DNA of 64,000 nt from Candidatus Limnocylindrales bacterium (GCA_036570185.1 DATCPH010000232.1:2453-66452), one strand, 5' to 3'; numbered from the stretch's first letter, positions 12,195-32,809 are shown. Numbers and translations: made by a program. Notes: generated by a model from the sequence alone, not told the origin.

Positions 12195-13151
12195 TTACCG
12201 CTCCCGGCGAAGAACCAGGATGTGCTGGTGGACGATGTTGGGAACGAATGCGTTGGGGTAGCCGTAGGGTCGGAGGCGGGTGCCGGCCTGATGCCAGACG
12301 AGGTCGCCCTTCGGAACCAGGCCGACGCCCGTCGCGCGTGCAGCGAGATCCGCGCCAGTGAAGATGTAGCGGCCGTTCTGGTAGGCGTCGCGAACGATGA
12401 GCGCGGCGTACCGGCCCGGCCGTAGCACGCGTCGACACTCGGCCAACGCCGCCTCCATTCGATCGAGGAAGGTCTCGTAATCGCCGCTGTTGGCGAGGTC
12501 GGCCGGATCGGACGTCACCATCGCGTAGTCCGTGCGCCGGTTGGCGTGTGTCTCGGCGAGCTTGCCGCCGGCCATGGTCAGGGGCAGCTGGACGTTGTAC
12601 GGAGGGTCGGTCGCGACGAAATCGACCGACGCCGCCGGCACCGTCGGCAGGATCTTCAGCGAATCACCCCGCCGCATTTCGAGCCCCGAGGGGTCGAACG
12701 ACCGGCGCCCCACCGGGTCCGCCGGTCCCAGATCGCTGAGGTCGGGACCCTTCCCATCGCGCTCGGCAAGCAGGTCGCGGACGACCTCCTCGTAGATGTT
12801 CACCCAGCGGGGATCGAGCTCGATCCCGAGAGCACGGCGGGGCCCGAGAGCGATGGCCGCGCCAAGCAGCGTCCCGCCGACGCCCGCGAACGGATCGAGG
12901 ACCAGCTCGCCCGTCTTGGTGAAGAACTCGATGAGCCTGGCCATGAGCCTCGGCGGCTTGTTGGCTCCATGGCTCTTGCGTCGGGAATGCCCGAGCTCGG
13001 ACGGGTATGCCGTCGACCAGACCGATTTCGTGAAGTAGAGCCACTCCTCGCCGGGCAGCTCGTTGAGGGCATTGTCGGGATGCGCGGCCCGCCTCCTCTC
13101 GGTCATGTGAGGGGCAGCGTAGCCGACGGCGAGCCCTAGAATGGCGTCCAT
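12195..13151 (-). CDS. Site-specific DNA methyltransferase (N6-adenine or N4-cytosine; DPPY motif), orphan (no adjacent restriction enzyme)
   Basis: Motif I VLDPFAGVGGT and motif IV TDPPYNV. The track ORF runs to 13730, but its first ~190 codons are Arg/Ser-rich shadow overlapping the divergent regulator gene. Plausible starts are ATG 13151 or ATG 13106. Confidence 0.75.
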   Translation of the reverse strand: MDAILGLAVGYAAPHMTERRRAAHPDNALNELPGEEWLYFTKSVWSTAYPSELGHSRRKSHGANKPPRLMARLIEFFTKTGELVLDPFAGVGGTLLGAAIALGPRRALGIELDPRWVNIYEEVVRDLLAERDGKGPDLSDLGPADPVGRRSFDPSGLEMRRGDSLKILPTVPAASVDFVATDPPYNVQLPLTMAGGKLAETHANRRTDYAMVTSDPADLANSGDYETFLDRMEAALAECRRVLRPGRYAALIVRDAYQNGRYIFTGADLAARATGVGLVPKGDLVWHQAGTRLRPYGYPNAFVPNIVHQHILVLRRER

Positions 13152-16100
13152 GCCCGCTCGTTTCACGAGCGTCCAGTTCGTCGGGCAAGAGAGAGCATTC
13201 GCCCGGATGGCGGCCTCGCTGGAGGCGGCGTCCGAGGGCCGGGCGACCACCGTTCTCGTTGCCGCGCAGGCGGGCGTGGGCGCGTCGCGGTTCCTGACAG
13301 AGACGGAACGTCGCCTTGCAACGCCCGGCTCCGACTTCCTCGTCTTGCGAGGGGCGGCGACAGCAGATGGGTCTGACCAGCCGTACGGGCCGGCGATTGC
13401 GGCCCTGCGGCCCGTGCTCGAGGCGCTCCCGGATTCGACGCTGGCCACGGTTCTCGGCCCGGGCGCCGAGGAGCTCGCCCGCCTCGTCCCATCGCTCCGC
13501 CCTCGCCTGGAGCCTCTCGGCGCCATGGCTGCGCGGCCCGCCGTGAGTGCTCCAGAGCGCCGGCAGGCCCGGATGCTGGAGGGCGTCCTCGGAGTACTTG
13601 GGCGCTTGTCGGGCCTCCAACCGATCGCCTTCGTGCTCGAGGACCTCCACCACGCCGACGCGGCGACCCGCTCCCTCGTGACCTTCCTAGCCCGCATCGC
13701 CCGGAACCAGCGCCTCTGTACGGTCGGCACCTACCAGCCAGACGAGATGACCCGCGACCATCCGCTCTGGTCGAGCCTGGCGGCGATCGACGACGCACGC
13801 CGGCCGGTCGAGCGGATCGAGCTCCAGGCCCTGGATCGAGGGCGGTTGGCGGAGCTGATCGAGGGCATCGAGGGCGCTCGGCCCTCGGCGTCAGTGCTCG
13901 TGCTCGTTGCGGAACGATCGGGTGGAGTGCCGCTCCTCGCCGAGGAGGTCCTCGCTGCACATCGGGAGCTGTCGAGCGCATCCCTCGCCGGCGGCCTGTC
14001 GGAGCTCGTGGTCGCCCGACTCGCCCTTCGCACCTCGGATTGCCGCCGGGTTCTGGGCCTTCTGGCTCCGGCCCACCGTCCACTGACGGACGCGCAGCTG
14101 GCGAAAGTCGCCTCGGCCTTCGCAGACACCGGCAGGTCGAGCGCCACCCGCGCGCGCCCGGTATCGCCGTCCCTCCGATCCACCGAGACGGCCGCCGGCT
14201 CGTCGCGCGCCTGGGATACCTCGGAGCGCCGTTCCGGTTGGCTCGCGCCCGATCTTGGGGCTGGTCTCGAGGAAGCAATCGAGCACGGATTTGTCGTCCG
14301 ACGCCCGGCCGGCATGATCGACTTCCGGCACGAGCTCATCGGTCGGGCCGTCGCCGACGACCTCCTCCCGGCGGCCCGCGCTCGCCACCACGCGGCCCTC
14401 GCGACCGCGCTCGATGACAACCCAGCCGCCGCGACTCGATACTGGCTCGTCGCCCACCGCGTCCAGGAAGCACGCCGCGCGGCGATCGCGGCAGCCGGCC
14501 TGGCGGAGGCGGTCGACGCCCCCGACGACGCGCTCCGGTACCTGGAGCTTGCCCTGGAGCTTGGCGAGGGCGGCGCCGGTTCCGAGGATGGCGGAACCCG
14601 CGACGCCGCGTCGCCCTCGGTCCACGTTCTCCAGCTGCGGGCCGCCGAGGCGGCCAGCGCGGCGGGCCGTCCCGCCCGAGCGGCGGCATTCGCCGAAGCC
14701 GCCATGAGCGACCTCCAACGTCGACGGGATCGGGTCGCACTGGGTTTGCTCTACGAGCGAATGGGCCGCTACCGGCGTGCCGGCGGCGACAACGACGGGG
14801 CGCTGGCGGCCTATCGTCGGGCAGTCGAGCTCGTTCCCGTCGAGCCGAGCCCGGCGCGCGCCGTCGTCCTCGCCTCGATCGCCCAGATCCGGATGCTCGA
14901 AGGCACGTTCTCGGATGCGGAGCCATACGCCCGCGAAGCGATCAAGATCGCTCGCAAGGTCGGCCCAGGCGCGGCCTCGTCGCTCGTCCACGCGACGACG
15001 ACCCTCGGCGTTTCTCTGGGTTGGGGCAGCGAGCCAGAGGAGGGTGTCCGACTGCTCCGGGAGGCCCGTCAGATGGCGGAGGAACTGGGCAATCTCGACG
15101 AGATGTTCCGGGTCTACGCCAACCTCACCACGGTCCTCGACGTGCTCGGGCGCAGGACCGAAGCCGTCGAGGTCGCGGAGGAGGGGATCGAGAAGGCCCG
15201 TCTTCACGGCCAGGAGGCCGCCTACGGCAACTTCCTGCGGGGCAATGCGGCCGATTCACTGTTTCGCCTTGGACGCTGGCCGGAGTCGCGCGCGCTCAGC
15301 GCGACGGCGGTCGAATGGAGCCCGCTCGGGGTCAACTTCGGCAATGCCAGCGTGTACCTGGCGGTCACCGAGATTGAGACATCAGCCGGCGAGCTCGCCG
15401 CACGCCTCCTGGGGCAGCTCCTGCTCGAGCTCGAGACCGTGCGCGACTCCCAACACGCGGTTCCCGTGTACCAGGCGGCCGCCTCGCTGGCCCTGTGGCG
15501 CGGGGACCTCGCCGACGCCCGTCGAGCCGTCGAGCGCGGCTGGGCTCATGTTCGCGAAACCGAGGACTGGGTCCTGGCGGCAAAGATGGCCGCAACGTTC
15601 CTCGAGGTCGAGGCCATGACGGCGGCCGATGCACGCGAGCGCCGGGACCTCGCCGCGGTTGCGGCGGCGCGCACACGCGCGAGTGTCGTCCTCAGCGAAG
15701 CGGGAGCCCTGGTGGGAGGGTCCCACGTCTCGGTGACTTTCGGCTCTCGGCGCGAGGCGGACGCTCAGCTTGCAACGGCCGCCGCGTTTCACCGGCGCAT
15801 CGAGGCGCGGGACAGGGCGCTCGACTGGGATGCCGTTGCCGCGCAGTGGGCGGCGATCGGCGATCCGTATCAGGTTGCGCGGGCTCGGTGGCGCCAGGCA
15901 GAGGCGATCCTGATGGCGTCCGATGCGCGGGGCGGCCGGAGGCAGGCGCGACGTCCACTTGTCGACGCCGCGACGATCGCACTCGAGCTCGGCGCGGAGC
16001 CCCTCCTCGCGGAATTGCGCGAACTGGCGGCGCGGGCGCGGATTCCGTTGCCGATCCTGGCGGCAGCTGGGCCAGGTTCAGATGATGGAGTGGCTGGCGC

Positions 16101-16536
16101 GCCCGACGGCCACGCCTCTGGGGCACCCGGCGGCCGCGGCCTCAGGCCCGTCGCGACGGCGCCTTCGGGACCCGATGGCGCGCGGCCGGCCCGGTCAGCC
16201 GCGTCGGCCGACTCGGTCGACGGCGCGGGTGCAGCGACTGTAGCCCTTCCCTCAGATCTCGTGCGGAGCGTTGCCGGCCTCGCGTCCGGCGCCGGCCGTC
16301 CCGACACCTTCGGCCTCTCGCGCCGCGAACGGGAAGTCCTGGCTCTGATTACGCAGGGGCGAACGAACCGTCAGATCGGCCAGCACTTGTTCATCAGCCA
16401 GAAGACCGTCGGCGTCCACGTGGGAAAGATCCTCTCCAAGCTCGGGGTTTCGGGCCGCGTTGAGGCGGCGACGGTCGCGATCAGGCTCGATCTTGCCGAC
16501 CGGCCCCTGAATACGTCGAAACCCGGCACCCTTTAG
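13141..16536 (+). CDS. LAL-type transcriptional regulator (AAA/NB-ARC-like ATPase + TPR-like region + C-terminal LuxR HTH)
   Basis: 1131 aa. N-terminal P-loop-like VLVAAQAGVGASRFLTE and Walker B-like IAFVLEDLHHAD. C-terminal LuxR-type HTH LSRREREVLALITQGRTNRQIGQHLFISQKTVGVHVGKILSKLGV. Confidence 0.85.
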   Translation: MASMPARFTSVQFVGQERAFARMAASLEAASEGRATTVLVAAQAGVGASRFLTETERRLATPGSDFLVLRGAATADGSDQPYGPAIAALRPVLEALPDSTLATVLGPGAEELARLVPSLRPRLEPLGAMAARPAVSAPERRQARMLEGVLGVLGRLSGLQPIAFVLEDLHHADAATRSLVTFLARIARNQRLCTVGTYQPDEMTRDHPLWSSLAAIDDARRPVERIELQALDRGRLAELIEGIEGARPSASVLVLVAERSGGVPLLAEEVLAAHRELSSASLAGGLSELVVARLALRTSDCRRVLGLLAPAHRPLTDAQLAKVASAFADTGRSSATRARPVSPSLRSTETAAGSSRAWDTSERRSGWLAPDLGAGLEEAIEHGFVVRRPAGMIDFRHELIGRAVADDLLPAARARHHAALATALDDNPAAATRYWLVAHRVQEARRAAIAAAGLAEAVDAPDDALRYLELALELGEGGAGSEDGGTRDAASPSVHVLQLRAAEAASAAGRPARAAAFAEAAMSDLQRRRDRVALGLLYERMGRYRRAGGDNDGALAAYRRAVELVPVEPSPARAVVLASIAQIRMLEGTFSDAEPYAREAIKIARKVGPGAASSLVHATTTLGVSLGWGSEPEEGVRLLREARQMAEELGNLDEMFRVYANLTTVLDVLGRRTEAVEVAEEGIEKARLHGQEAAYGNFLRGNAADSLFRLGRWPESRALSATAVEWSPLGVNFGNASVYLAVTEIETSAGELAARLLGQLLLELETVRDSQHAVPVYQAAASLALWRGDLADARRAVERGWAHVRETEDWVLAAKMAATFLEVEAMTAADARERRDLAAVAAARTRASVVLSEAGALVGGSHVSVTFGSRREADAQLATAAAFHRRIEARDRALDWDAVAAQWAAIGDPYQVARARWRQAEAILMASDARGGRRQARRPLVDAATIALELGAEPLLAELRELAARARIPLPILAAAGPGSDDGVAGAPDGHASGAPGGRGLRPVATAPSGPDGARPARSAASADSVDGAGAATVALPSDLVRSVAGLASGAGRPDTFGLSRREREVLALITQGRTNRQIGQHLFISQKTVGVHVGKILSKLGVSGRVEAATVAIRLDLADRPLNTSKPGTL

Positions 16537-18441: not shown

Positions 18442-19440
18442 TCAGCTCGGCGCTTGCTCCCGGCGATGCCCGGTCGCAACCTCGGCGAGGGCGCTCTCCT
18501 CGATCTGGTCCGGCGACGCAACCGCCACGCGAGCGCGGGTGACAGCGCGCAGCGTCGAGGTCCGAAGGCCGCCTTCGAGGATCGCCCGCTCGCCCAGGAT
18601 CGCGCCCGGTCCGATCTCGGCGACCTCGTTGCCGTCGACGATCACGCTCAGCACCCCGTCGAGCAGGAGGAAGATCTCACTGCCCGGGTCGCCCTGTTCG
18701 ACCAGGGACTGACCTGCGTCGACCGTCCGGATCCGGGGTGACGTCCCGGACCGCATGATCGTCCGCGAGAGCTGTCGCTCGAGGGCCGTCTCGACCGCGG
18801 TGACCACGGCCGGCGAGTCGTACGCGCCCCATGGGGTGTGCACACCGAACGAATCGTTGAACCAGGTCTTGAAGTCGATGACCGCCGACTTCGCGACAAG
18901 CTTGCCGGCATGGTCGTAGACCCAGTGACGCGGAAACGGACTGGCACCGACGAGTTCGCGCTGGGTCGTCCCATCGCTGTTGATCGTGAGGGCAAGAGTG
19001 GTCCAGGCGATCGGTGGGGTGAGCTGGAAAAAGGGCTTTCGTGGCACGGGTCTGGGGGTCGGCAATCCCATTCGGCCGCCCACCGTCTGGACGAAGCGCA
19101 CCGAGGTGGGACCGACGACGGGGTCGGGCGTGATGTCGGCCAGTCTCACCGCCGGGAATGCAATGGACGCGGGGCCCAGCCGGACGGTTGTGGATCCGAT
19201 ATGGCCGCCGCCGCTCTGGCCGTAGCTGCTGACGCGCCCGTCCTCGAACTCGACGTAGGCGCGAAGCTCATTGGCCTCCCTGAACCGGTCACCCTTCCGG
19301 AGCGCCTCAAGATCCTCGATGGCGTCGGGCGGAGGCTCGTCATAGTGGGTGATGCCCACCTCGAAGGGCATCTTGGCCAGTCCTTCGATCGCCTCTGACG
19401 GAATCCAGGAGAGCGAGGTAACCGACGAATCTATGCGCAT
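18442..19440 (-). CDS. Protein with N-terminal domain of unknown function and C-terminal cyclic-nucleotide-binding (CAP effector-like) domain
   Basis: Start chosen at ATG 19440 (MRIDSSVTSLSWIP), preceded by GGAGGG. The cNMP-binding motif region is GDPGSEIFLLLDGVLSVIVDGNEVAEIGPGAILGERAIL...TLRAVT. No HTH follows. Confidence 0.7.
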   Translation of the reverse strand: MRIDSSVTSLSWIPSEAIEGLAKMPFEVGITHYDEPPPDAIEDLEALRKGDRFREANELRAYVEFEDGRVSSYGQSGGGHIGSTTVRLGPASIAFPAVRLADITPDPVVGPTSVRFVQTVGGRMGLPTPRPVPRKPFFQLTPPIAWTTLALTINSDGTTQRELVGASPFPRHWVYDHAGKLVAKSAVIDFKTWFNDSFGVHTPWGAYDSPAVVTAVETALERQLSRTIMRSGTSPRIRTVDAGQSLVEQGDPGSEIFLLLDGVLSVIVDGNEVAEIGPGAILGERAILEGGLRTSTLRAVTRARVAVASPDQIEESALAEVATGHRREQAPS

Positions 19441-21737: not shown

Positions 21738-22055
21738 TCAGCCCTCGACGTTCGACTTCGGCGCCGGCGCCGTCGGCTTCTTCTTGAACATCTGGAGCAT
21801 TCGGTCGGTGACGACGTAGCCGCCGACGACATTCATTGCCGCGAACGCGACCGCGACCAGCGACAGGACCTGGCTGAGGATGTTGTCCGCGCCGGCGGCG
21901 ATGAGCATCGACCCGACGAGCACGATGCCGTGGATCGAGTTCGCTCCGGACATCAGCGGCGTGTGAAGGGTCGCGGGGACCTTGCTGATGACCTCGAAGC
22001 CCACGAGGATCGCGAGGACGAAGACGGTCAGGGCCGACAGCAGCTCGGGACTCAC
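21738..22055 (-). CDS. pntAB: NAD(P) transhydrogenase subunit alpha part 2 (membrane part)
   Basis: 105-aa protein with 3 TM helices, located between pntAA and pntB. 4-nt overlap with pntAA. Confidence 0.85.
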   Translation of the reverse strand: MSPELLSALTVFVLAILVGFEVISKVPATLHTPLMSGANSIHGIVLVGSMLIAAGADNILSQVLSLVAVAFAAMNVVGGYVVTDRMLQMFKKKPTAPAPKSNVEG

Positions 22056-23215
22056 GCGGCACCTCCCGGCGCGGCGGGCGCCGGATCCAGCAGCTTGCGT
22101 ACCGCCTCCGAAACGACTTCGCCGCCGTGGGTGATCGTCACCGGGCCGGTGATCTCATCGGTCAGGTCGATGTTCAACTCCCCGTCCTTCGTCATGTGCA
22201 GCAACAGCGTCGAGATGTTGCGGGCGTAGAACTGCGAGGCGCTGGCGGGCATCGAGGCCGGCAGGTTGTCCGGCGCGATGATCGTCACGCCCTCCTCGGT
22301 CAGGATCGTCTCGCCGGCCTTCGAGAGCTCGCAGTTGCCGCCGAGCGTCGAGGCGGCCATGTCGACGATGACCGAGCCCGACTTCATGCCGTGGACGGCT
22401 TCGGCCGTGACGAGGACCGGTGGTTTGCGCCCGGGTACCTGGGCGGTCGTGATCACGACGTCCATACCAGCGATGACTTCGTTGAGCTCGGCCTGCTGGG
22501 CGGCGCGTTCCTCCGCGGTCAGTTCGCGCGCGTAGCCGCCGGCCCCGGTGGCGTCGATCGCCGTCTTCAGCGTCACGAACTGCGCACCGAGCGACTGCGC
22601 CTGTTCCCGGGTCTCGGGCCGGACGTCATACGCCTTGACGACCGCACCGAGTCGCCGCGCCGTGCCGATCGCTTGGAGCCCCGCCACGCCGATCCCGAGG
22701 ATCAGGACGTTGGCGGGCTTGGCGGTTCCAGCCGCAGTCGTGAGCAGCGGGAAGTAGCGCCCAAAGGCGTTGGCGGCGATCAGCACGGCCTTGTAACCAC
22801 CGACATTTGCCTGTGAGCTCAGGGCATCCATCGTCTGGGCCCGCGACAGGGTGCGCGGAATCGCATCGAGGCTGACCGCGGTGATGCCCTGCTTCGCCAT
22901 GGAGCCTGCGAGCACCGGATCGATCAGCGGCTGGAGGACTCCGACAAGGGCCTGGCCCGATCGCATCCGGCCGACTTCGGCCGGCGAAGGCTTCTGGACA
23001 CGAAGCACAACGTCGGCGTCGCGGTACAGCTCGTCGGTCGAGACCACGCGCGCACCCGCTTCGACAAAGGCCTGATCGGGGATGAGCGCGCCGTCACCGG
23101 CGCCTTGTTCCACGAGGATCTCCAAGCCCCCGGCCGTCAACTTGCTGAGTGCTTCGGGTACCAGGGCGACGCGCCGTTCGCCGGGCGCAGTCTCCTTGGC
23201 GACGCCGACCTTCAT
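22052..23215 (-). CDS. pntAA: NAD(P) transhydrogenase subunit alpha part 1 (dI, NAD(H)-binding)
   Basis: Alanine-dehydrogenase/PNT fold with Rossmann motif LILGIGVAGLQAIGTARRLGAVV. Start at ATG 23215 with AGGTGG SD. The track ORF to 23632 is an upstream shadow. Confidence 0.9.
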   Translation of the reverse strand: MKVGVAKETAPGERRVALVPEALSKLTAGGLEILVEQGAGDGALIPDQAFVEAGARVVSTDELYRDADVVLRVQKPSPAEVGRMRSGQALVGVLQPLIDPVLAGSMAKQGITAVSLDAIPRTLSRAQTMDALSSQANVGGYKAVLIAANAFGRYFPLLTTAAGTAKPANVLILGIGVAGLQAIGTARRLGAVVKAYDVRPETREQAQSLGAQFVTLKTAIDATGAGGYARELTAEERAAQQAELNEVIAGMDVVITTAQVPGRKPPVLVTAEAVHGMKSGSVIVDMAASTLGGNCELSKAGETILTEEGVTIIAPDNLPASMPASASQFYARNISTLLLHMTKDGELNIDLTDEITGPVTITHGGEVVSEAVRKLLDPAPAAPGGAA

Positions 23216-23441
23216 GGGCACCACCTTGGGTCGTGTTGGGATTGATCGCGCATGACGTTCTGGGAACCGATGAAGGATAGCGGTCACCGCTCCGGGGCGT
23301 CCGGTATTCGATGGCAAGGTTCCGATTCTTCCGCGCCACCGGCCCCTGGCAAGAGTTGGTCGCCCGGGAGGATCGACCGGCCCGTCCCCAAGGGGCCGTT
23401 CGGCCCTGTTGACGGGCTCCGCTCGGTCCCAACGTTCGGTC

Positions 23442-25457
23442 ATGGCATACCGCATCGAGATCGACCATGCGGGCTGCATCAATTGCGGCATCTGCATGGA
23501 CACCTGCCCGGTCGAAGCGCTCGACATGACCCGCCCAACAGGTCCCGGCATCGAGTCTTCAGGGGCCGGCGCGCCCCAGCCGTGGATGATGGAGCACCCG
23601 GTCCAGGTCGGGGAGTGCGTGGGCTGCGGCATCTGTATTCGCGAGTGCCCTGTCGTCGTGATGACGCTCCACGCCGATGCCGACGGCCCGGACCTTCAGC
23701 CGCGCCAGGGTCCGATCGACCGGCCGGCGGTGCAGGCATCCCGCAAGAGTAGAGACGCTCGCGATCGAACCGCCTGGCTACCTCTCTCGACGGTCACCCG
23801 CGAGGCGCTGAAGCCGATTCACGGGTCGCCGTGGGGCGACCTCTTCTCGTGGAGAACCTCCGAGCGACCGAAGGCCTGGCAGACGTGGAAATCGATGGTC
23901 GACGCTCGTCCAGCCGAACCGATCGCGCCGTGTCAGGAGGCGTGCCCCGCTGGGACTGACGCCGGTCGCTACGTCGGGCTCATCGCCCAGGGTCGCTACG
24001 ACGACGCCTACGCGGTCGCCGCCGAGGTCAACCCGTTTCCGTCGGTGTGCGGCTGGATCTGCACGGCGCCGTGCGAGTCGGTCTGCCGCCGGGGCGTCCT
24101 CGACGAGCCGATCGCCATCCGGACGCTGAAGCGCTTCGCGGCCGAGCACGGCCACCTGCCCGCCGTCCCGAAGCCCACGCTGCGTCGCGAGGCGCCGGTC
24201 GCCATTGTCGGCGGCGGACCCGCCGGGATGTCGGCGGCGTATTACCTGGCGCGACTTGGCTACCCGGTGACCGTGTTCGAGGCGATGCCTGTACCCGGCG
24301 GGATGATGGCAATCGGGATCCCCGAATATCGTCTGCCGCGCGAGGTCCTTCGCGAGGAGCTCGACCGGATCGTGGGGCTGGGCGTCGACCTTCGCCTCGA
24401 TGCGGCGATGGGCCGGGACTTCACGCTCGCCGACCTGGAGCGGGACGGCTACCGCGCGATCTTCCTCGCCACCGGAGCATCGAAGAGCCGACGGCTGGCT
24501 GTGCCCGGGGACGATCTCCGCGGCGTGGTCCCCGCGACCCTGTTCCTGAAGCAGGTCAATCTCGGCGAGCGGCCAGAGCTGAGCGGGGCGGTAGTCGTGG
24601 TCGGTGGCGGAAGCACGGCGATGGACGCAGCTCGCTCGGCGCTGCGGAGCGGAGCTGCCTCTGTGACGATTGCCTATCGCCGCGGCCGCGCCGACATGCC
24701 CGCTCAGGAGGAAGAGATCGAGGCCGCGCTCCGAGAGGGGATCGCCCTCGAGACGGGCCTTCTTCCGCTCGAAGTCGTCGGATCCGGCGGCCGTGTGACC
24801 GGGCTCCGGTTCGCGGAGCAGCGTGCTTCGGCGCGCTCCGAGGGCGGGCGTGTTGCCTGGGAGACGGTGCCGGACACTGAGCGGCACTTGCCCGCGACGA
24901 CGATTCTGGTCGCAGTCGGCGAGGAACCCGATCCATCGATCCTTCCGGAAGGTGCCGGAATCGGGGTCAGCGGCTGGGCGGGCATCGCCGCGGACTCGCG
25001 AACCCTCGCGACCGGACGCCCCGGCATCTTCGCCGGCGGCGACGTGGTTTCGGGTCCGAAGACGATCATCGATGCGGTCGCCGCCGGCCGGCGCGCCGCC
25101 GGCTCAATCCACGAGTTCCTCGGCGGCGTCGCAAACGGCGAGTCGGCGATTCTCGCCGCCGTCCGGTACCGCACCTCGGCGGAACCGGCGCTCAGCCTTG
25201 ACCTTGGCATCCGCCCGCGGGCCCGTGCGCCGCTTCCGGTGATCGACCGGGCTTCGTTCGCCGCGAGCCAGGTCGGGTTCGACGAGCCGGCCGCGCGAGC
25301 GGAGGCCGAGCGCTGCTTCCGGTGCGATGCGATCTATCGTTCTGCGTCGGTTGAGGTCACCGCGGGCCGTGGGCCGCACGAGAACCGGACCGCCGCCACG
25401 CACGACGCTCCGCCGGCGGTGTTCGAACGACCAATCCAACCGATCTCGGGAGGGTAG
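23442..25457 (+). CDS. Iron-sulfur flavoprotein: N-terminal 2x[4Fe-4S] ferredoxin domain fused to glutamate-synthase-small-subunit-like (GltD/NfnB/SudA-type) FAD/NAD(P)H oxidoreductase
   Basis: Two CxxCxxCxxxCP motifs (CINCGICMDTCP, CVGCGICIRECP). GltD-type cluster region (CQEACPAG...CGWICTAPCESVC). FAD motif VAIVGGGPAGMSAAYYLA and NAD(P) motif VVVVGGGSTAMDAARSA. ATG at 23442 chosen; the track start is TTG 23409. Confidence 0.85.
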   Translation: MAYRIEIDHAGCINCGICMDTCPVEALDMTRPTGPGIESSGAGAPQPWMMEHPVQVGECVGCGICIRECPVVVMTLHADADGPDLQPRQGPIDRPAVQASRKSRDARDRTAWLPLSTVTREALKPIHGSPWGDLFSWRTSERPKAWQTWKSMVDARPAEPIAPCQEACPAGTDAGRYVGLIAQGRYDDAYAVAAEVNPFPSVCGWICTAPCESVCRRGVLDEPIAIRTLKRFAAEHGHLPAVPKPTLRREAPVAIVGGGPAGMSAAYYLARLGYPVTVFEAMPVPGGMMAIGIPEYRLPREVLREELDRIVGLGVDLRLDAAMGRDFTLADLERDGYRAIFLATGASKSRRLAVPGDDLRGVVPATLFLKQVNLGERPELSGAVVVVGGGSTAMDAARSALRSGAASVTIAYRRGRADMPAQEEEIEAALREGIALETGLLPLEVVGSGGRVTGLRFAEQRASARSEGGRVAWETVPDTERHLPATTILVAVGEEPDPSILPEGAGIGVSGWAGIAADSRTLATGRPGIFAGGDVVSGPKTIIDAVAAGRRAAGSIHEFLGGVANGESAILAAVRYRTSAEPALSLDLGIRPRARAPLPVIDRASFAASQVGFDEPAARAEAERCFRCDAIYRSASVEVTAGRGPHENRTAATHDAPPAVFERPIQPISGG

Positions 25458-25459
25458 AG

Positions 25460-26110
25460 ATGCGCGCCGACCAGGTATCCGGGTTCTTCGACGCCGGCGA
25501 AGGCTTCATCGAGGGCACGATCGCGGCCGCGCTCGTCGTCTTGTGGCTGCTCGTCGTCGCGCTCCATCTCGGCCGCCCGTACATGGTCCGGACCACCGGC
25601 AAGTTCACCCTTCGATTGGGGGCCGACCTGTGGTGGATCATCTACGTGGGGCTGCGTGACATCTTCACCGTCCAGGTCTTTCTCGGCAGCTTCATCTTCT
25701 TCTACCCGGACGTGGTCACCGGCCAGGACCTGCCGATCACCGGCGGCCTCGCCGCCGTCTGCGCGTTCGGCGCGCTCCTGATCAAGCTCATGACGCGGGG
25801 CGACGCGCGCACACCGTACCTGTGGCAGGCGCTGCTGCTCGGGTTGGGCGCGGCGCTCTATATCGGCCCGTATTTCTTCGGCGTACAGATGACGATGCTG
25901 ACCGGCAAGAACGTCGACGTGATCATGCCGCTGCTCGTCTCATCCAAGAATCCCGATCTCGCCCTGGCCCTTTGCTACCTCTCGGCGGCCCTTGTCGGCG
26001 TCCTCGGCCTTGTCGCGGTGGCCTACAACCTGCGGGCCACGATGGGCCGGCCGCAGGCCACCCGGCGCTCTTCGACTGCGGAGCAAGCCGCAACCCAAGG
26101 AGGAATCTGA
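25460..26110 (+). CDS. Hypothetical 5-TM membrane protein, operonic with the Fe-S flavoprotein
   Basis: Starts 3 nt after the flavoprotein stop with GGGAGGG SD. Five hydrophobic helices. Paralogous to the next gene. Confidence 0.65.
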   Translation: MRADQVSGFFDAGEGFIEGTIAAALVVLWLLVVALHLGRPYMVRTTGKFTLRLGADLWWIIYVGLRDIFTVQVFLGSFIFFYPDVVTGQDLPITGGLAAVCAFGALLIKLMTRGDARTPYLWQALLLGLGAALYIGPYFFGVQMTMLTGKNVDVIMPLLVSSKNPDLALALCYLSAALVGVLGLVAVAYNLRATMGRPQATRRSSTAEQAATQGGI

Positions 26111-26739
26111 TGTTGAGTGCCGACGATCTGGCCCAGGCCCTGACCCACGGCTCCTCCGGGTGGATGGTCCTGTCGGTCGCCGCGGTGCTGCCGATCCTGT
26201 GGGCCTTCACCCTGGTCCTGCACTTCGCCCGCCCCGCGATGATCCGCTTCCTCCAGAGCCTGACCCTGCGTTTTGGTGGCGACGTCTGGTGGCTCTCCTA
26301 CGTGCTATTCCGGGACGCGCTCCTGGTGATCACCCTCGGATTGAGCGTGATCTTCCTCATGCCAAATCTCTATCTGAAGATCGGGCTTCCGATCACGGCG
26401 CCGCTCGCGACGCTCGTCCTGTTCTGGGCGCTCATCGTGAAGCTCGTTCGCGATTCGGATGATGATCCGGCCGCCTTCCGCCTTGTCAGCGTCCTGTTGG
26501 TCGTGGCCTCGGTGCTCTACATCGTCCCGCAGATCTACGGTCTCGAAGCAGCCGATCAGGCGTATCTGGGCGGCCTGCCGGCCGCCCTCACCAGCAGCTC
26601 GAATCTGGCGGTCGCCAAGCCGATCCTCTGGATCAGTCTCGGGCTCCTTGGCCTGACGGCGACCGGCGTGTTCCTGCGCTTCCTGCGCGACCTCCTGCGG
26701 GCCGACTTCGCCGACGAGGAGTCGTCCGCCGGGGCCTGA
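26110..26739 (+). CDS. Hypothetical 5-TM membrane protein, paralog of the preceding gene
   Basis: ATG 26110 with AAGGAGG SD, overlapping the previous stop. Shared blocks with its neighbour: TLR(L/F)G(A/G)D(L/V)WW and GLPIT(G/A)(G/P)LA. Confidence 0.65.
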   Translation: MLSADDLAQALTHGSSGWMVLSVAAVLPILWAFTLVLHFARPAMIRFLQSLTLRFGGDVWWLSYVLFRDALLVITLGLSVIFLMPNLYLKIGLPITAPLATLVLFWALIVKLVRDSDDDPAAFRLVSVLLVVASVLYIVPQIYGLEAADQAYLGGLPAALTSSSNLAVAKPILWISLGLLGLTATGVFLRFLRDLLRADFADEESSAGA

Positions 26740-26785
26740 CGGATCGGGCTCGGAATAAAGAGGCTCCGCCGAGAGCGCGGTCGCT

Positions 26786-27364
26786 TCAGCCCGCGGCGCC
26801 TCCAACGTTGACGTTGCGTCCGTTGACGGCCGCGGCGACGTCACGGGGCGGCTCTTCGCCAGTCATCGCCTCGCTGTTGAGGCGGTCGGTCAGCAGCAGG
26901 ATCAGGCGAAGCAACTCGCGCTGATCCGTCTCGCTGAGGCCGCCGTAGACGCGGGCCATCATCGCCTGGCGATGGGCGAAGATCTTCGGAACGCTGTCGG
27001 CCTGGGTCGTGAGCTCGACGATCGTGGCGCGCCGGTCGGATGGGTGCGGACGCCTGCGGACCAGCCCCTCCGCCTCGAGACCGTCAACGAGCGCGGTGAT
27101 GTTCCGGGCCGTGACTCCCAGGCGCTGGCTCAGCTCGGCCATGATCTGCGGCCCATGGCGATGAAGCGCGAAGAGGAGCTGCAGCCGCGGCCACGAGAGC
27201 CCGCCCTCGGGCTCGTGGGCTCGTGCCCAGCGGCCGAATGCGGCCCCGAACGCCCCCCAGGCGCCGACCAGTTCCGCGGCCGTGCTGGTTGCCGGCGGAC
27301 GGCTCACCCGCCGCCGCCGTTCGGCCCCGGGCGACTCAGTCGGCCTGCCCGATACTGTAGACAT
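26786..27364 (-). CDS. MarR family transcriptional regulator
   Basis: Winged-HTH region LSWPRLQLLFALHRHGPQIMAELSQRLGVTARNITALVDGLEAEGLVRRRPHPSDRRATIVELT. Divergent from an ABC exporter pair. Confidence 0.8.
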   Translation of the reverse strand: MSTVSGRPTESPGAERRRRVSRPPATSTAAELVGAWGAFGAAFGRWARAHEPEGGLSWPRLQLLFALHRHGPQIMAELSQRLGVTARNITALVDGLEAEGLVRRRPHPSDRRATIVELTTQADSVPKIFAHRQAMMARVYGGLSETDQRELLRLILLLTDRLNSEAMTGEEPPRDVAAAVNGRNVNVGGAAG

Positions 27365-27497
27365 TCATTATCCACCGTGATACTGTCACGGCCTTCATGA
27401 TAGCACTCGGATCCGGCAACCTCCACGCCTCGAACACATTCGGTCCACACGATCGGCCGACGATCGCGGGTACCGTGAACAACGAGGAACGAACCCG

Positions 27498-29246
27498 ATG
27501 ATCCGCCTCCTTCGGACCTACCTTCGGCCGTACTCTGGCCAGCTGACCCTGACCATGGGCCTGTTGCTGATCGGGGCGATCGGGAACCTGTATCTGCCGA
27601 CGCTCAATGGCGACATCATCAACAACGGCGTCGCCAAGGGTGACAACGGGTACATCCTGCAGGCCGGAGCGCTGATGCTCGTGGCGACGTTCGCCCTCGG
27701 AATCGCCTCGATCGCGGCGGTGTATTTCGGCGCGCGGATCGCGATGGGCTTTGGTCGCGACGTTCGCAGCGCGATCTTCCGCAAGGTCGAGAGCTTCAGC
27801 CAGGTCGAAGTGAATCGCTTCGGGCCGCCGTCTCTCATCACCCGGAACACGAACGACGTCCAGCAGGTCCAGATGGTCGTGTTCATGGGCCTCACGATCC
27901 TGGTCTCCGCCCCGATCCTCGCCGTCGGCGGGATCATCCTCGCGGTCCGGCAGGACGTGCCCCTGTCCGGCCTTCTCGTCGTCATCCTGCCGCTCATGGC
28001 CGCCTTCATCGGCCTGGTGATGTCTCGAGCCATCCCCCTCTTCCGGTCCATGCAGGTCAAGCTGGACCGGATCAACCAGGTGATGCGCGAGACCCTCGCC
28101 GGCGTCCGCGTCATCCGGGCCTTCGTCCGGGCGGAGCACGAGGAGGGGCGCTTCGATCAGGCCAACACCGACCTCTTCAACACCGCGATCTCGGTCAACC
28201 GCCTGTTCGCACTGACGATCCCGGTGATGAGTGGGATCTTCAATCTGTCGAGCGTCGCGGTGATGTGGTTCGGCGCCCTCCGCGTGGACAGCGGACAGAT
28301 GCCGATCGGCAACCTCACCGCGTTCCTGCAGTACCTCATGCAGATCCTCTTCGCGGTGATGATGGCCGTTTTCATGTTCGTCTTCGTGCCGCGAGCAGCC
28401 GTCTCGGCCGGTCGGATCCAGGAGGTCCTCGAAACCGATCCGCTCATCTCCGATCCCGAGCGCCCGGTGCCGCTCCCGCCCATCGGGTCCGGGACGCGAC
28501 GTGGGGTCCACGTCGAATTCCGCGACGTCGAGTTCGGCTATCCCGGGGCAGAGCAGCCGGTCCTCCGCGACAACTCCTTCGAGGCCCGGCCCGGCGAGAC
28601 GACGGCCATCATCGGCAGCACCGGCAGCGGCAAGTCGACCCTCATCAACCTGATTCCGCGCTTTTACGACGTCACCGGTGGCTCGGTACTGATTGACGGT
28701 GTCGACGTCCGTGAGATCAACCGCGAGGACCTCTGGCTGCGGATGGGCGTCATCCCCCAGAAGGCGTTCCTCTTCAGTGGGACCGTGGCCTCCAACCTCC
28801 GCTTCGGGGACCAGAACGCGACGGACGACGAGTTGTGGCGGGCGCTCGAGACGGCCCAGGCGCGGGACTTCGTCGAGGAGATGGGCGGCCTTGACGCGCC
28901 GATCACGCAGGGCGGAACGAACGTTTCGGGCGGACAGCGCCAACGACTGGCGATCGCCCGAGCCCTGGTGAAGAACGCCGGGCTGTACATCTTCGACGAG
29001 AGCTTCTCGGCCCTCGACTTTGCGACCGACGCCCGCCTCCGTGCTGCGATCGAACGAGAGCTCGGGTGGGCCACCCTGATCATCGTTGCCCAGCGCGTCG
29101 GCACGATCATGAAAGCCGATCAGATCCTGGTCATGGAGGATGGCCGGATCGTCGGCCGGGGCACCCACGCCGAACTGCTCGACACCAACGAAACCTATCG
29201 CGAGATCGTCTACTCGCAGCTGTCGGCCGCGGAGGCGGTGGCATGA
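27498..29246 (+). CDS. ABC transporter ATP-binding/permease protein (type I exporter half-transporter, MDR-like)
   Basis: 6-TM domain followed by an NBD with Walker A GSTGSGKST, signature VSGGQRQRLAIARA and Walker B LYIFDESFSALD. Confidence 0.9.
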   Translation: MIRLLRTYLRPYSGQLTLTMGLLLIGAIGNLYLPTLNGDIINNGVAKGDNGYILQAGALMLVATFALGIASIAAVYFGARIAMGFGRDVRSAIFRKVESFSQVEVNRFGPPSLITRNTNDVQQVQMVVFMGLTILVSAPILAVGGIILAVRQDVPLSGLLVVILPLMAAFIGLVMSRAIPLFRSMQVKLDRINQVMRETLAGVRVIRAFVRAEHEEGRFDQANTDLFNTAISVNRLFALTIPVMSGIFNLSSVAVMWFGALRVDSGQMPIGNLTAFLQYLMQILFAVMMAVFMFVFVPRAAVSAGRIQEVLETDPLISDPERPVPLPPIGSGTRRGVHVEFRDVEFGYPGAEQPVLRDNSFEARPGETTAIIGSTGSGKSTLINLIPRFYDVTGGSVLIDGVDVREINREDLWLRMGVIPQKAFLFSGTVASNLRFGDQNATDDELWRALETAQARDFVEEMGGLDAPITQGGTNVSGGQRQRLAIARALVKNAGLYIFDESFSALDFATDARLRAAIERELGWATLIIVAQRVGTIMKADQILVMEDGRIVGRGTHAELLDTNETYREIVYSQLSAAEAVA

Positions 29247-31435: not shown

Positions 31436-32809
31436 ATGCGCCAGTCTGTCGCGCTCCGGCCCCTTCCGATGCCCCGCACCTGGCCGCTCCGACCGAGCGA
31501 CCTTGCGGCGTTCGCCACGGCAAACGGAATCCTCATTGTCGGGATGTGGGTGCGCCACGGCGGCCTGAACAGCCTCGACAGCCTGGGCACCCAGCTGACC
31601 GCTGCCGGGCAGCTGACCGCCCTGCTCGGCACCTACCTGGTCCTGATCCAGCTCGTCCTCATGTCGAGGAGCCCGTGGCTCGACCAGCTGTTCGGAATGC
31701 CCCGTCTGGCGGCCTGGCATCGGTGGGTCGGGTTTGCCTGCCTGTGGTTGCTCGTGGGACACGGCGTCTTTACGATCGTCGGCTTCTCGATGGTGGATCG
31801 GATCGACCCGATCGGTGAGGCCTGGACGATGCTGACGACCTACCCCTACGTCCTCATGGCAACCGCTGCTCTCGGACTGCTCGTGCTCGTCGGCGTCACG
31901 TCCGTCCGGATCGCCCGACGACACCTTACCTATGAGACCTGGTACTACGTCCACATCTACGCGTATCTCGGGGTTGCGCTCGCCTTCGCCCATCAACTCG
32001 TGGTCGGCACGGACTTCATCAACGACACGCTGGCGCGCGGATACTGGATCGCGCTCTATGCGCTGACCGCCGCCTGCATCCTCTTCTTCCGGATCGGCCC
32101 TCCGATCCAGATGGCATTCCGGCATCGACTTCAAGTGGCGAACGTCGTCTCCGAAGGCCCGGGGGTGATCTCGATCTACGTGACCGGCCGCGATCTCGAT
32201 CGGCTGCCCGTCCGTGCCGGCCAGTTCTTCCTGTGGCGGTTCCTGGCCGGCGATGGGTGGTGGCGGGCGCATCCCTTTTCGATCTCGGCGGCCCCGAACG
32301 GCGAATGGCTGCGGCTGACGGTCAAGGATCGAGGGGACGACACCAGAGCCCTCCAGGCCCTGCGCATCGGCACGCCCGTGTTCGCTGAAGGGCCTTACGG
32401 TGCCTTCACTGGGGCTCTGAGCAGCCGGCCGCGAACCCTGCTGATCGCGGGAGGCATCGGGATCACGCCCCTCCGGGCCCTTCTCGAGGAGATGGCCGCG
32501 CCACCCGGGACCCTCACCCTGATCTACCGGGCCAGTCGCTGGGACGACGTCATCTTTCGTCGTGAGCTCGACGTCCTGATCAAGGCCCGTCTATGGCGGG
32601 TTCACTACGTCGTCGGGCGGCGAGGGCTGGGCGAGGTGCCACGCGAGCCCCTCGATGCCGCCCACATTCGCGCCCTTGTCCCGGACGCGGCAAAGCGCGA
32701 CGTCTTCGTCTGCGGTCCGGACTCCTTGCTCGATGCCGTTCGCCGCAGCCTGGCAATCCTCCGCGTGCCGGTAGCACAGATCCATTTTGAAAGGTTCGCA
32801 TTCTCGTGA
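31436..32809 (+). CDS. Ferric-reductase-like transmembrane domain fused to FAD- and NAD(P)-binding domains (NOX/FRE-type membrane flavoprotein)
   Basis: N-terminal 6-TM domain with paired His residues (HRWVGFACLWLLVGHGV, HIYAYLGVALAFAH). FAD motif HPFSI and NAD motif GGIGITP in the cytoplasmic ferredoxin-reductase-like module. Confidence 0.8.
   Translation: MRQSVALRPLPMPRTWPLRPSDLAAFATANGILIVGMWVRHGGLNSLDSLGTQLTAAGQLTALLGTYLVLIQLVLMSRSPWLDQLFGMPRLAAWHRWVGFACLWLLVGHGVFTIVGFSMVDRIDPIGEAWTMLTTYPYVLMATAALGLLVLVGVTSVRIARRHLTYETWYYVHIYAYLGVALAFAHQLVVGTDFINDTLARGYWIALYALTAACILFFRIGPPIQMAFRHRLQVANVVSEGPGVISIYVTGRDLDRLPVRAGQFFLWRFLAGDGWWRAHPFSISAAPNGEWLRLTVKDRGDDTRALQALRIGTPVFAEGPYGAFTGALSSRPRTLLIAGGIGITPLRALLEEMAAPPGTLTLIYRASRWDDVIFRRELDVLIKARLWRVHYVVGRRGLGEVPREPLDAAHIRALVPDAAKRDVFVCGPDSLLDAVRRSLAILRVPVAQIHFERFAFS

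Follow-up and report, generated by a model that had tools for sequence, protein, structure and literature searches.

A GltD-like iron-sulfur flavoprotein encoded with two paralogous five-helix membrane proteins in Limnocylindria, and the conserved pairing of the membrane protein family with one ferredoxin module

A gene for an iron-sulfur flavoprotein that is followed at once by two genes for membrane proteins of no named family raises the questions of which parts of such a unit belong together and where its electrons go. These questions are posed by a 64,000-nt stretch of DNA from Candidatus Limnocylindrales bacterium (GCA_036570185.1 DATCPH010000232.1:2453-66452), here called the window, whose numbering is used throughout and whose GC content is about 0.68. 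Three plus-strand genes spanning 23442-26739 encode, in this order, the 671-amino-acid (aa) Fe-S flavoprotein F (23442-25457), the 216-aa protein M1 with five transmembrane (TM) helices (25460-26110), and its 209-aa five-TM paralog M2 (26110-26739). A first-pass annotation of the window had predicted the same three open reading frames (ORFs), all of which are present on this strand at these positions, and had taken them to form one unit.

The comparative data bear out this view. Counts were based on the best 80 of 376 stretches encoding M relatives in GTDB species representatives; nearly all of the 80 are labelled as metagenome-assembled genomes (MAGs) of Limnocylindria, Chloroflexia or Chloroflexota. 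The order F-M1-M2 is kept in 79 of them; L055, the remaining locus, has too little upstream sequence for F to be seen. Since the same gene order is found in 79 of 80 other species-level genomes, the arrangement is not due to chance. In the window, the F stop codon TAG (25455-25457) is separated from the M1 start codon ATG (25460) by 2 nt, and the M1 stop codon TGA (26108-26110) shares one nt with the M2 ATG at 26110, which is the true M2 start; a mechanical ORF call from 25822 over-extends the gene. The junctions had been described as a 3-nt spacing and an overlap, of which the overlap (M1/M2, 1 nt) is correct and the F-M1 spacing has to be corrected to 2 nt. The strong Shine-Dalgarno sequences noted for both membrane genes can be read from the sequence as GGGAGGG for M1 (25448-25454, plus strand, within the 3' end of F) and AGGAGG for M2 (26098-26103, plus strand, within the 3' end of M1). 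The stop and start codons of F and M1 overlap by 4 nt in 36 of the 38 assessable loci, and a candidate M2 start lies -4 to +17 nt from the M1 stop in 64 of 64. Taken together, the conserved order and the stop/start overlaps in most loci are strong comparative evidence that F-M1-M2 is an operon with translational coupling.

Is this whole cassette the conserved unit? The distant M homologs (alignment A2) are mostly archaeal and come from Nitrososphaerota/Thaumarchaeota MAGs. In these archaeal loci a single M gene is followed at once by a gene for a ferredoxin of 155-177 aa, and often then by a gene for a ferredoxin-like protein of 100 aa. The stand-alone archaeal ferredoxin matches residues 1-158 of F with 36% identity over 159 aa (E = 2e-30), and its homology to this module extends over the whole length, a Trp-rich extension included. 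In a survey of 87 further loci (L082-L168), three architectures were distinguished: A, [Fd-GltD-Cterm]-M-M, where Fd is the ferredoxin module, fused to a GltD-like part in Limnocylindria; B, M-Fd, in some cases with the small ferredoxin as well; and C, M-Fd-M. In every assessable locus among L001-L168, M adjoins the ferredoxin module, which is recognized by its two CxxCxxCxxxC motifs and the extension W-x-P-L-S-x-x-T-R-E-x-L-K, and no locus in L082-L168 with enough flanking sequence was found to lack it. Judged from these gene orders, the conserved unit across Bacteria and Archaea is M plus one particular ferredoxin module. M always occurs with this module, and the GltD part is a bacterial, lineage-specific add-on that supplies a pyridine-nucleotide site. 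The linkage of a GltD-type flavoprotein to the membrane proteins, as put forward in the first-pass annotation, stands, whereas the unit kept in evolution is M with the ferredoxin module. Profile searches and co-occurrence analysis, which had been suggested there as follow-up, assigned M to no known family and found it always with this module.

The M family itself is small overall: an exhaustive hidden Markov model search of 1.84 billion representatives returned 286 members at E up to 1e-3. Within Limnocylindria it is dense and well conserved, homologs numbering 2453 for M1 and 1635 for M2, with top matches 73-96% identical and all unnamed; one sequence identical to M1 is recorded as a 'hypothetical protein' of a Candidatus Limnocylindrales MAG.

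A few loci differ from the three architectures in detail. In L088 (940-3511, GC 0.39), M, a TM-anchored NirK-like copper nitrite reductase and the ferredoxin module are encoded in that order, and this is the only one of the 87 loci with an extracytoplasmic redox enzyme inside the M/Fd pair. The 100-aa archaeal ferredoxin-like protein (L084 9481-9786, L082 9477-9779) combines an atypical C-x5-C-x3-C-P motif with a normal CxxCxxCxxxC motif. In addition, genes for V4R-domain and HTH_10 regulators are found near archaeal M-Fd loci (L086 9947-10426, L093 8112-8552).

What can F contribute to such a unit? F, whose orthologs in 77 loci share 54-79% identity, consists of three parts: the ferredoxin module, a GltD/NfnB-like FAD/NAD(P)H core and a C-terminal extension. 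The first part (residues 1-158, 23442-23915, plus strand) comprises a 2x[4Fe-4S] ferredoxin, with Pfam Fer4 matches at residues 5-71, and the Trp-rich extension. Its two complete CxxCxxCxxxC motifs (C12/15/18/22 and C59/62/65/69) are separated by an unusually long insert of about 36 residues, and the extension, of 80 residues, contains W112-L-P-L-S-x-x-T-R-E-x-L-K and then W131, W137, W146 and W149. The Cys motifs match those of FwdF/MvhB and NuoI/TYKY (FwdF 1e-18; NuoI/TYKY about 1e-4; NCBIfam FpoI 1.7e-8), and NuoI sits at a membrane-arm interface. However, this likeness is confined to residues 4-78, and neither the insert nor the Trp-rich extension has a counterpart in the PDB sequence search.

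The second part (residues 159-564, 23916-25133, plus strand) contains Fer4_20 (PF14691, E = 3.9e-15, residues 162-236) and Pyr_redox_2 (PF07992, E = 1.1e-33, residues 253-549), together with NAD_binding_8 and Pyr_redox matches. The cysteines of the Fer4_20 domain are C164, C168, C203, C207, C211 and C215; a Rossmann fold for FAD lies at about residues 253-260, and a second one for NAD(P)H at about 386-395, followed by YRRGR. The PDB sequence search found solved relatives in 9n5u_A (2e-98), StnC (8oh5_C, 3e-86), NfnB of T. maritima (4ylf_B, 1e-75), NfnI of P. furiosus (5jca_L, 6e-70), GltD (2vdc_G, 1e-53) and dihydropyrimidine dehydrogenase (DPD, 1e-48). With Pyr_redox_2, Fer4_20 and NfnB-like PDB chains matching at 1e-75 to 2e-98, F is of the GltD/NfnB/SudA type, as had been recognized; the two [4Fe-4S] clusters ascribed to it are too few. 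All 14 cluster-ligand cysteines, eight in the ferredoxin module and six in Fer4_20, are 100% conserved in the 77 homologs, and by these motifs F carries sites for four [4Fe-4S] clusters plus FAD. The YRRGR sequence behind the second Rossmann fold presumably points to a preference for NADPH, as it does in the wider family, so F is probably NADPH-dependent. F scores below every curated NCBIfam cutoff, the best match being PRK12771 (449 bits, cutoff 516), followed by gltA TIGR01316 (300, cutoff 472) and gltD_gamma (235, cutoff 483); it is therefore a member of the superfamily and of no named equivalog.

The third part (residues 565-671 with the stop codon, 25134-25457, plus strand) has an invariant C625-x2-C628 pair and ends in FERPIQPISGG. 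Searched alone, it gave no Pfam match and no PDB match; in the full-length PDB search, residues 564-630 co-align with 9bov and 8oh5_C. The last 11 residues (FERPIQPISGG, residues 661-671, 25422-25454) are about 90% conserved while the preceding 100 residues are variable, and the peptide may be a docking element; its coding region partly overlaps the M1 Shine-Dalgarno sequence. Two further positions stand out. Residue 457 (24810-24812) is Phe here and Cys in 69% of the 77 homologs, and residue 634 (25341-25343) is Ser here and Cys in 86%, C625 and C628 being invariant. F thus appears, from this Cys pattern, to have a possible accessory four-Cys site for a metal or a cluster that is degenerate in this genome.

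GltD-like modules, which include GltD (the glutamate synthase beta subunit), NfnB/SudA and the N-terminal domains of StnC and DPD, pass electrons from NAD(P)H to a partner via low-potential [4Fe-4S] clusters (PMC8097209). F residues 159-564 align with them end to end, with the Fer4_20 cysteines and both Rossmann motifs conserved, and the same electron-passing role would be expected of F (PMC8097209). In contrast to these systems, neither the window nor the conserved neighbourhood encodes a GltB, NfnA, StnAB or DHODH-like partner for F; the partner of F is the membrane-protein pair. In the 8-kb flanks of the cassette, a GltB or NfnA/SudB-type partner is absent from the recurring neighbour clusters of 62 loci and from the called genes of L001, and the 64-kb window holds no ORF of GltB size, its large ORFs being unrelated. 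E. coli AegA, which is not known to occur together with M-like membrane proteins, has the same domain order as F with a [4Fe-4S] ferredoxin before the GltD-like part. Its alignment with F covers F residues 4-562, and YgfT shares the order; however, F reaches only 223 bits for AegA (cutoff 1003) and 193 for YgfT (cutoff 1154), the former score meaning that F is not an AegA ortholog. A further difference from AegA is the specific Trp-rich extension in the ferredoxin module of F, which the archaeal stand-alone proteins also have. The function of AegA itself is poorly understood (PMC8097209).

The other half of the question concerns M1 and M2. The two proteins are 30% identical over 213 aa (E = 9e-22), and each has five hydrophobic segments by hydropathy. 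Five long helices are also seen in the AlphaFold models of M1, built from a 14-sequence alignment (pLDDT 83, pTM 0.75), and of the archaeal homolog P0439 (62 sequences, pLDDT 75). The description of M1 and M2 as paralogous five-TM proteins is supported by the identity, the hydropathy and the M1 model. Neither M1 nor M2 matched a Pfam or NCBIfam family (E up to 0.1 or 0.01), and the M family profile had no sequence match in the PDB at E up to 10. Foldseek searches of the PDB with the M1 and P0439 monomer models gave best E values of 0.41 and 0.15 with TM-scores of at most 0.30. The first-pass annotation would have been overturned by membership of M in a well-characterized family, and these Pfam, NCBIfam, PDB and fold searches found none. 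A CcmC-like fold was considered since 7f02_C occurs in both Foldseek lists, but was rejected as noise (TM-score 0.21-0.30, rmsd 12.7-15 Å).

M also lacks recognizable cofactor motifs, as had been noted. There is no conserved Cys in the family, and the sole His (H36 in TM1; M residues are numbered as in M1) is invariant in the M1 and M2 proteins of Limnocylindria, whereas most of the archaeal and other distant members have Gln instead. A heme b held between M1 and M2 by the TM1 His, as in SdhC/D, was rejected because of this Gln and because there is no second ligand. Twelve residues are invariant in 62 bacterial and archaeal members: R39, R44, G54, D56, W59, R66, D67, P83, K109, L110, D115 and S161. 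Most of them are charged, and they are concentrated on the cytoplasmic face and in TM2, where the R66-D67 pair is found about mid-way along the helix. The best-conserved stretch of the family is A-R-P-Y-x-x-R-x-x-x-K-F-T-L-R-L-G-A-D.

In relatives of M, TM1 is preceded by an additional N-terminal helix or by a signal peptide that looks cleavable; in others a signal peptide is combined with an Ig-like domain. In P0256 (L087 1037-2044), P0262 and P0275, for example, TM1 follows a signal peptide and a domain, Ig-like or acidic, of about 100 aa, which fixes the M N-terminus on the extracytoplasmic side; the gene order in L087 is F, the extended M and an ordinary M2. In addition, Lys and Arg residues number seven on the predicted inside versus three outside. 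The N-terminal additions and this charge distribution together indicate an N-out/C-in topology, which places the A-R-P-Y...K-F-T-L-R-L-G-A-D stretch on the cytoplasmic side.

Several known membrane anchors invite comparison with M1 and M2. FrdC/FrdD of E. coli fumarate reductase and DmsC/NrfD/PsrC are small cofactor-free membrane subunits under an Fe-S chain, FrdC/FrdD being a paralogous pair, and they provide a quinone/quinol site; a corresponding role of M1/M2 is proposed by functional analogy only, as no sequence or fold relationship to M was found with Pfam, the PDB profile search (E up to 10) or Foldseek. The helix counts differ as well, with 5+5 in M1/M2, 3+3 in FrdCD and at least eight in NrfD-type subunits. 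NarI/HdrE/DsrM share with M five TM helices, predicted in the case of M, and a cytoplasmic Fe-S protein as partner, and NarI has an N-out/C-in topology. They bind two b hemes via four conserved His, whereas M has the single TM1 His, Gln in most archaeal homologs, and no Pfam or fold match to them. Anchors of the NrfD/PsrC/DmsC, FrdCD/SdhCD and NarI/HdrE/DsrM types are all absent among the Foldseek matches of the M monomer models. The type of system, an Fe-S flavoprotein on a hydrophobic anchor, is familiar; the anchor family is undescribed and has no solved fold relative.

Where, then, would the electrons go? We propose, as a plausible reading that stays somewhat short of probable, that F-M1-M2 is an NAD(P)H:quinone-type oxidoreductase, membrane-bound and heme-less, with M1/M2 as its anchor and acceptor site. 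According to this proposal, F, M1 and M2 would be subunits of one membrane-bound redox enzyme. M1 and M2 would form a pseudo-symmetric 10-helix heterodimer, replaced in archaea by an M homodimer, in an N-out/C-in orientation. On the cytoplasmic face of this dimer the ferredoxin module of F would dock, the contact being made by the Trp-rich extension and the cytoplasmic M loop with the A-R-P-Y motif. NAD(P)H, probably NADPH, would give a hydride to FAD, and the electrons would pass from FAD through the four [4Fe-4S] clusters to the membrane surface, as along the wire of DPD, which likewise has a chain of four [4Fe-4S] clusters (PMC8097209). They would end at a lipophilic acceptor in M1/M2, most likely menaquinone, in a site lined by D56, W58/W59, Y62 and the R66-D67 pair of TM2. 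In archaea, the same M plus ferredoxin core would take electrons from the small ferredoxin or another donor in place of a fused GltD part.

The reasoning behind the acceptor is as follows. M has no redox cofactor ligands and no gene for a soluble acceptor is linked to the cassette, so the simplest sink would be a lipophilic acceptor bound by M. Likewise, a cluster chain that ends at the membrane, with no other recurring redox partner, would need a membrane-resident acceptor. No other redox partner recurs in the neighbourhoods, and the search for recurring partners near archaeal and type-C loci yielded only regulators (V4R, HTH_10), the small ferredoxin and scattered hydrolases.

Several points weigh against a quinone-reactive M. 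No quinone-binding motif or known quinone-site fold was recognized in M, and no relationship to known quinone-reactive anchors was detectable by Pfam, PDB profile or Foldseek searches. The Arg-Asp pair in the middle of the membrane would be as compatible with ion translocation as with quinone binding. In one relative, the NirK-like periplasmic enzyme encoded between M and Fd hints at other acceptors. Finally, the organism is represented by a MAG alone and offers no physiology as a guide.

The alternative that survives best is that M1 and M2 merely hold F at the membrane, or aid its assembly or stability, and that the acceptor reduced by F is soluble or peripheral, for example a thiol, a metabolite or a ferredoxin. 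Soluble partners are the rule for GltD-like modules (PMC8097209), the closest solved relatives of F are soluble Nfn/Stn-type enzymes, and the lack of cofactor ligands in M would be expected. However, twelve invariant and mostly charged residues across Bacteria and Archaea would be unexpected for a tether, and so would the strict pairing with one ferredoxin module in three gene architectures; in addition, no soluble acceptor gene recurs nearby. We therefore consider a passive tether unlikely.

The invariant R66-D67 pair, together with the other charged residues that are invariant in both paralogs and in archaea, leads to a further possibility, namely that M1/M2 are a small ion-conducting unit in which electron transfer through the ferredoxin module is coupled to H+ or Na+ movement, as in Rnf and PntAB. 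The electron source would be NADPH oxidation or ferredoxin/NADP+ exchange, and such coupling might add to quinone reduction. From established redox potentials, the energy of NADPH-to-menaquinone transfer would be enough for pumping, and pntAB is nearby in a subclade. On the other hand, M is unlike any known ion-translocating subunit, the dimer would have 10 helices only, the archaeal version has ferredoxin-type partners only with no second soluble redox couple evident, and the adjacency to pnt is kept in only about seven of 80 loci. Ion coupling is accordingly judged quite unlikely.

The same reasoning, from a chain of clusters that stops at a membrane protein lacking cofactors, applies not only to quinone. 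F-M1-M2 might instead reduce another lipophilic or membrane substrate, such as a lipid peroxide, a double bond in an isoprenoid or a lipid, or a metal ion on the membrane surface. An alpha/beta-hydrolase (Ser_hydrolase) gene lies directly 3' of Fd in four type-B loci, one or two other type-B loci have a thioesterase gene in the vicinity, and the acidic cluster D113-D115 could bind a cation. This explanation seems decidedly unlikely, as no lipid-modifying or metal-handling gene is consistently linked and neither Pfam nor Foldseek revealed similarity to known lipid or metal reductases.

A transmembrane conduit from cytoplasmic electrons to an extracytoplasmic enzyme or acceptor would account for the TM-anchored copper nitrite reductase gene in L088, for the extracytoplasmic Ig-like domain on some M relatives, and for the conservation of outer-loop residues (P83, LPIT, S161, N164). 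It is very improbable, because M offers no conserved heme, Fe-S or Cu ligands and hence no path across about 30 Å, the TM1 His being Gln in most archaeal relatives and conserved Cys being absent, and because the NirK association is seen in one of 87 loci.

The genes upstream suggested a last explanation. The predicted divergent genes pntAA (about 22052-23215), pntAB (21738-22055) and pntB (from 20315, upper end unmapped) are present on the minus strand of the window, and pntAA is separated from F by 226 nt (23216-23441), presumably the promoter region. The idea of the first-pass annotation that F-M1-M2 and pntAA-pntAB-pntB make up a joint NAD(P)H redox-balancing locus draws on this divergent adjacency, on pnt genes within a few kb of the cassette in L001/L013, L004, L008, L034, L037 and L061, and on the likely NADPH dependence of F read from YRRGR, but it is scarcely credible given that about 73 of the 80 genomes that keep F-M1-M2 have no pnt in the 8-kb flanks, that pnt and F are separated by genes for a histidine kinase and a response regulator in L001, the one pnt-bearing locus examined in detail, and that archaeal M-Fd loci have no pnt.

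Returning to the quinone-reductase reading, its wider form is that M plus the ferredoxin module is an unrecognized, heme-less and possibly energy-conserving respiratory entry point in Limnocylindria, a group of soil and freshwater Chloroflexota, and in Nitrososphaerota, passing electrons from NADPH (bacteria, via the fused GltD part) or from ferredoxin (archaea) to the quinone pool. We regard this as possible and rather doubtful. If it were true, the system would represent a new class of NAD(P)H/ferredoxin:quinone oxidoreductase. More generally, if M is a quinone-reactive or ion-coupled anchor, it would be a new membrane fold linking soluble NAD(P)H/ferredoxin pools to the membrane, F would be the first GltD-like module plugged into a membrane system, and thousands of 'hypothetical protein' entries, that is, the M1 and M2 matches counted above, would receive an annotation. 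Limnocylindria are abundant and almost wholly uncultured, and the archaeal carriers are known from MAGs only. A strictly conserved Fe-S/flavin enzyme with an uncharacterized membrane partner therefore marks a gap in genome-based reconstructions of electron transport. No publication describing the F-M1-M2 system was found in the literature on Limnocylindria or on NfnB with a membrane subunit and quinone.

The neighbours of the cassette were also compared across loci. Downstream in the window come a convergent MarR gene (26786-27364) and then two genes for ABC exporters, and in none of the 80 loci does a MarR gene adjoin the cassette. Neither pnt nor MarR is conserved as a neighbour in the 80 loci, and both were rejected as functional partners. 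A recurrent neighbour is a two-component pair directly upstream of F on the same strand (L001 3805-5877; e.g. L002 5192-5920): among 62 type-A loci, a cytoplasmic GAF-HisKA_3 kinase gene precedes F in 44 and a NarL-type response regulator gene in at least 30. The window lacks this pair, and pntAA takes its place next to F. The kinase was considered as a DosS-like hypoxia sensor, and this was rejected as the PDB and NCBIfam searches gave generic NarX/NarQ/DesK-type kinase cores only. The intergenic region between pntAA and F contains a single weak sigma-70-like match, on the minus strand (23352-23325). Rfam had no match, and the promoter, terminator and Rfam scans of 22800-27500 were otherwise uninformative.

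Some records deviate from the general distribution of the cassette. Cassette proteins with 62-76% identity to those of Limnocylindria occur in two MAGs placed in unrelated phyla, one labelled Candidatus Sulfotelmatobacter (L075, one of the 80 loci) and the other Candidatus Deferrimicrobium (P0144); mis-binning is the most likely explanation, with horizontal transfer as the alternative. Apparent natural fusions of F with M or of M1 with M2 (P0245, P0314, P0348, P0357, P0337, P0367, P0241 and P0123) were rejected since Arg/Pro-rich junk separates their good segments, and they are probably frameshifted gene calls resulting from assembly errors in high-GC MAGs.

Three other genes of the window deserve mention. 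At a distance of 4.7 kb downstream of the operon, 31436-32809 on the plus strand encodes a 457-aa protein with a ferric-reductase-like TM domain and an NAD-binding domain (FRE/NOX-like), a second membrane NAD(P)H oxidoreductase. On the other side, upstream of the pnt genes, 18442-19440 on the minus strand encodes a cNMP-binding-domain protein whose N-terminal part of about 230 aa has no assigned domain, and farther upstream, 13141-16536 on the plus strand encodes a 1131-aa AAA_16/LuxR-type regulator.

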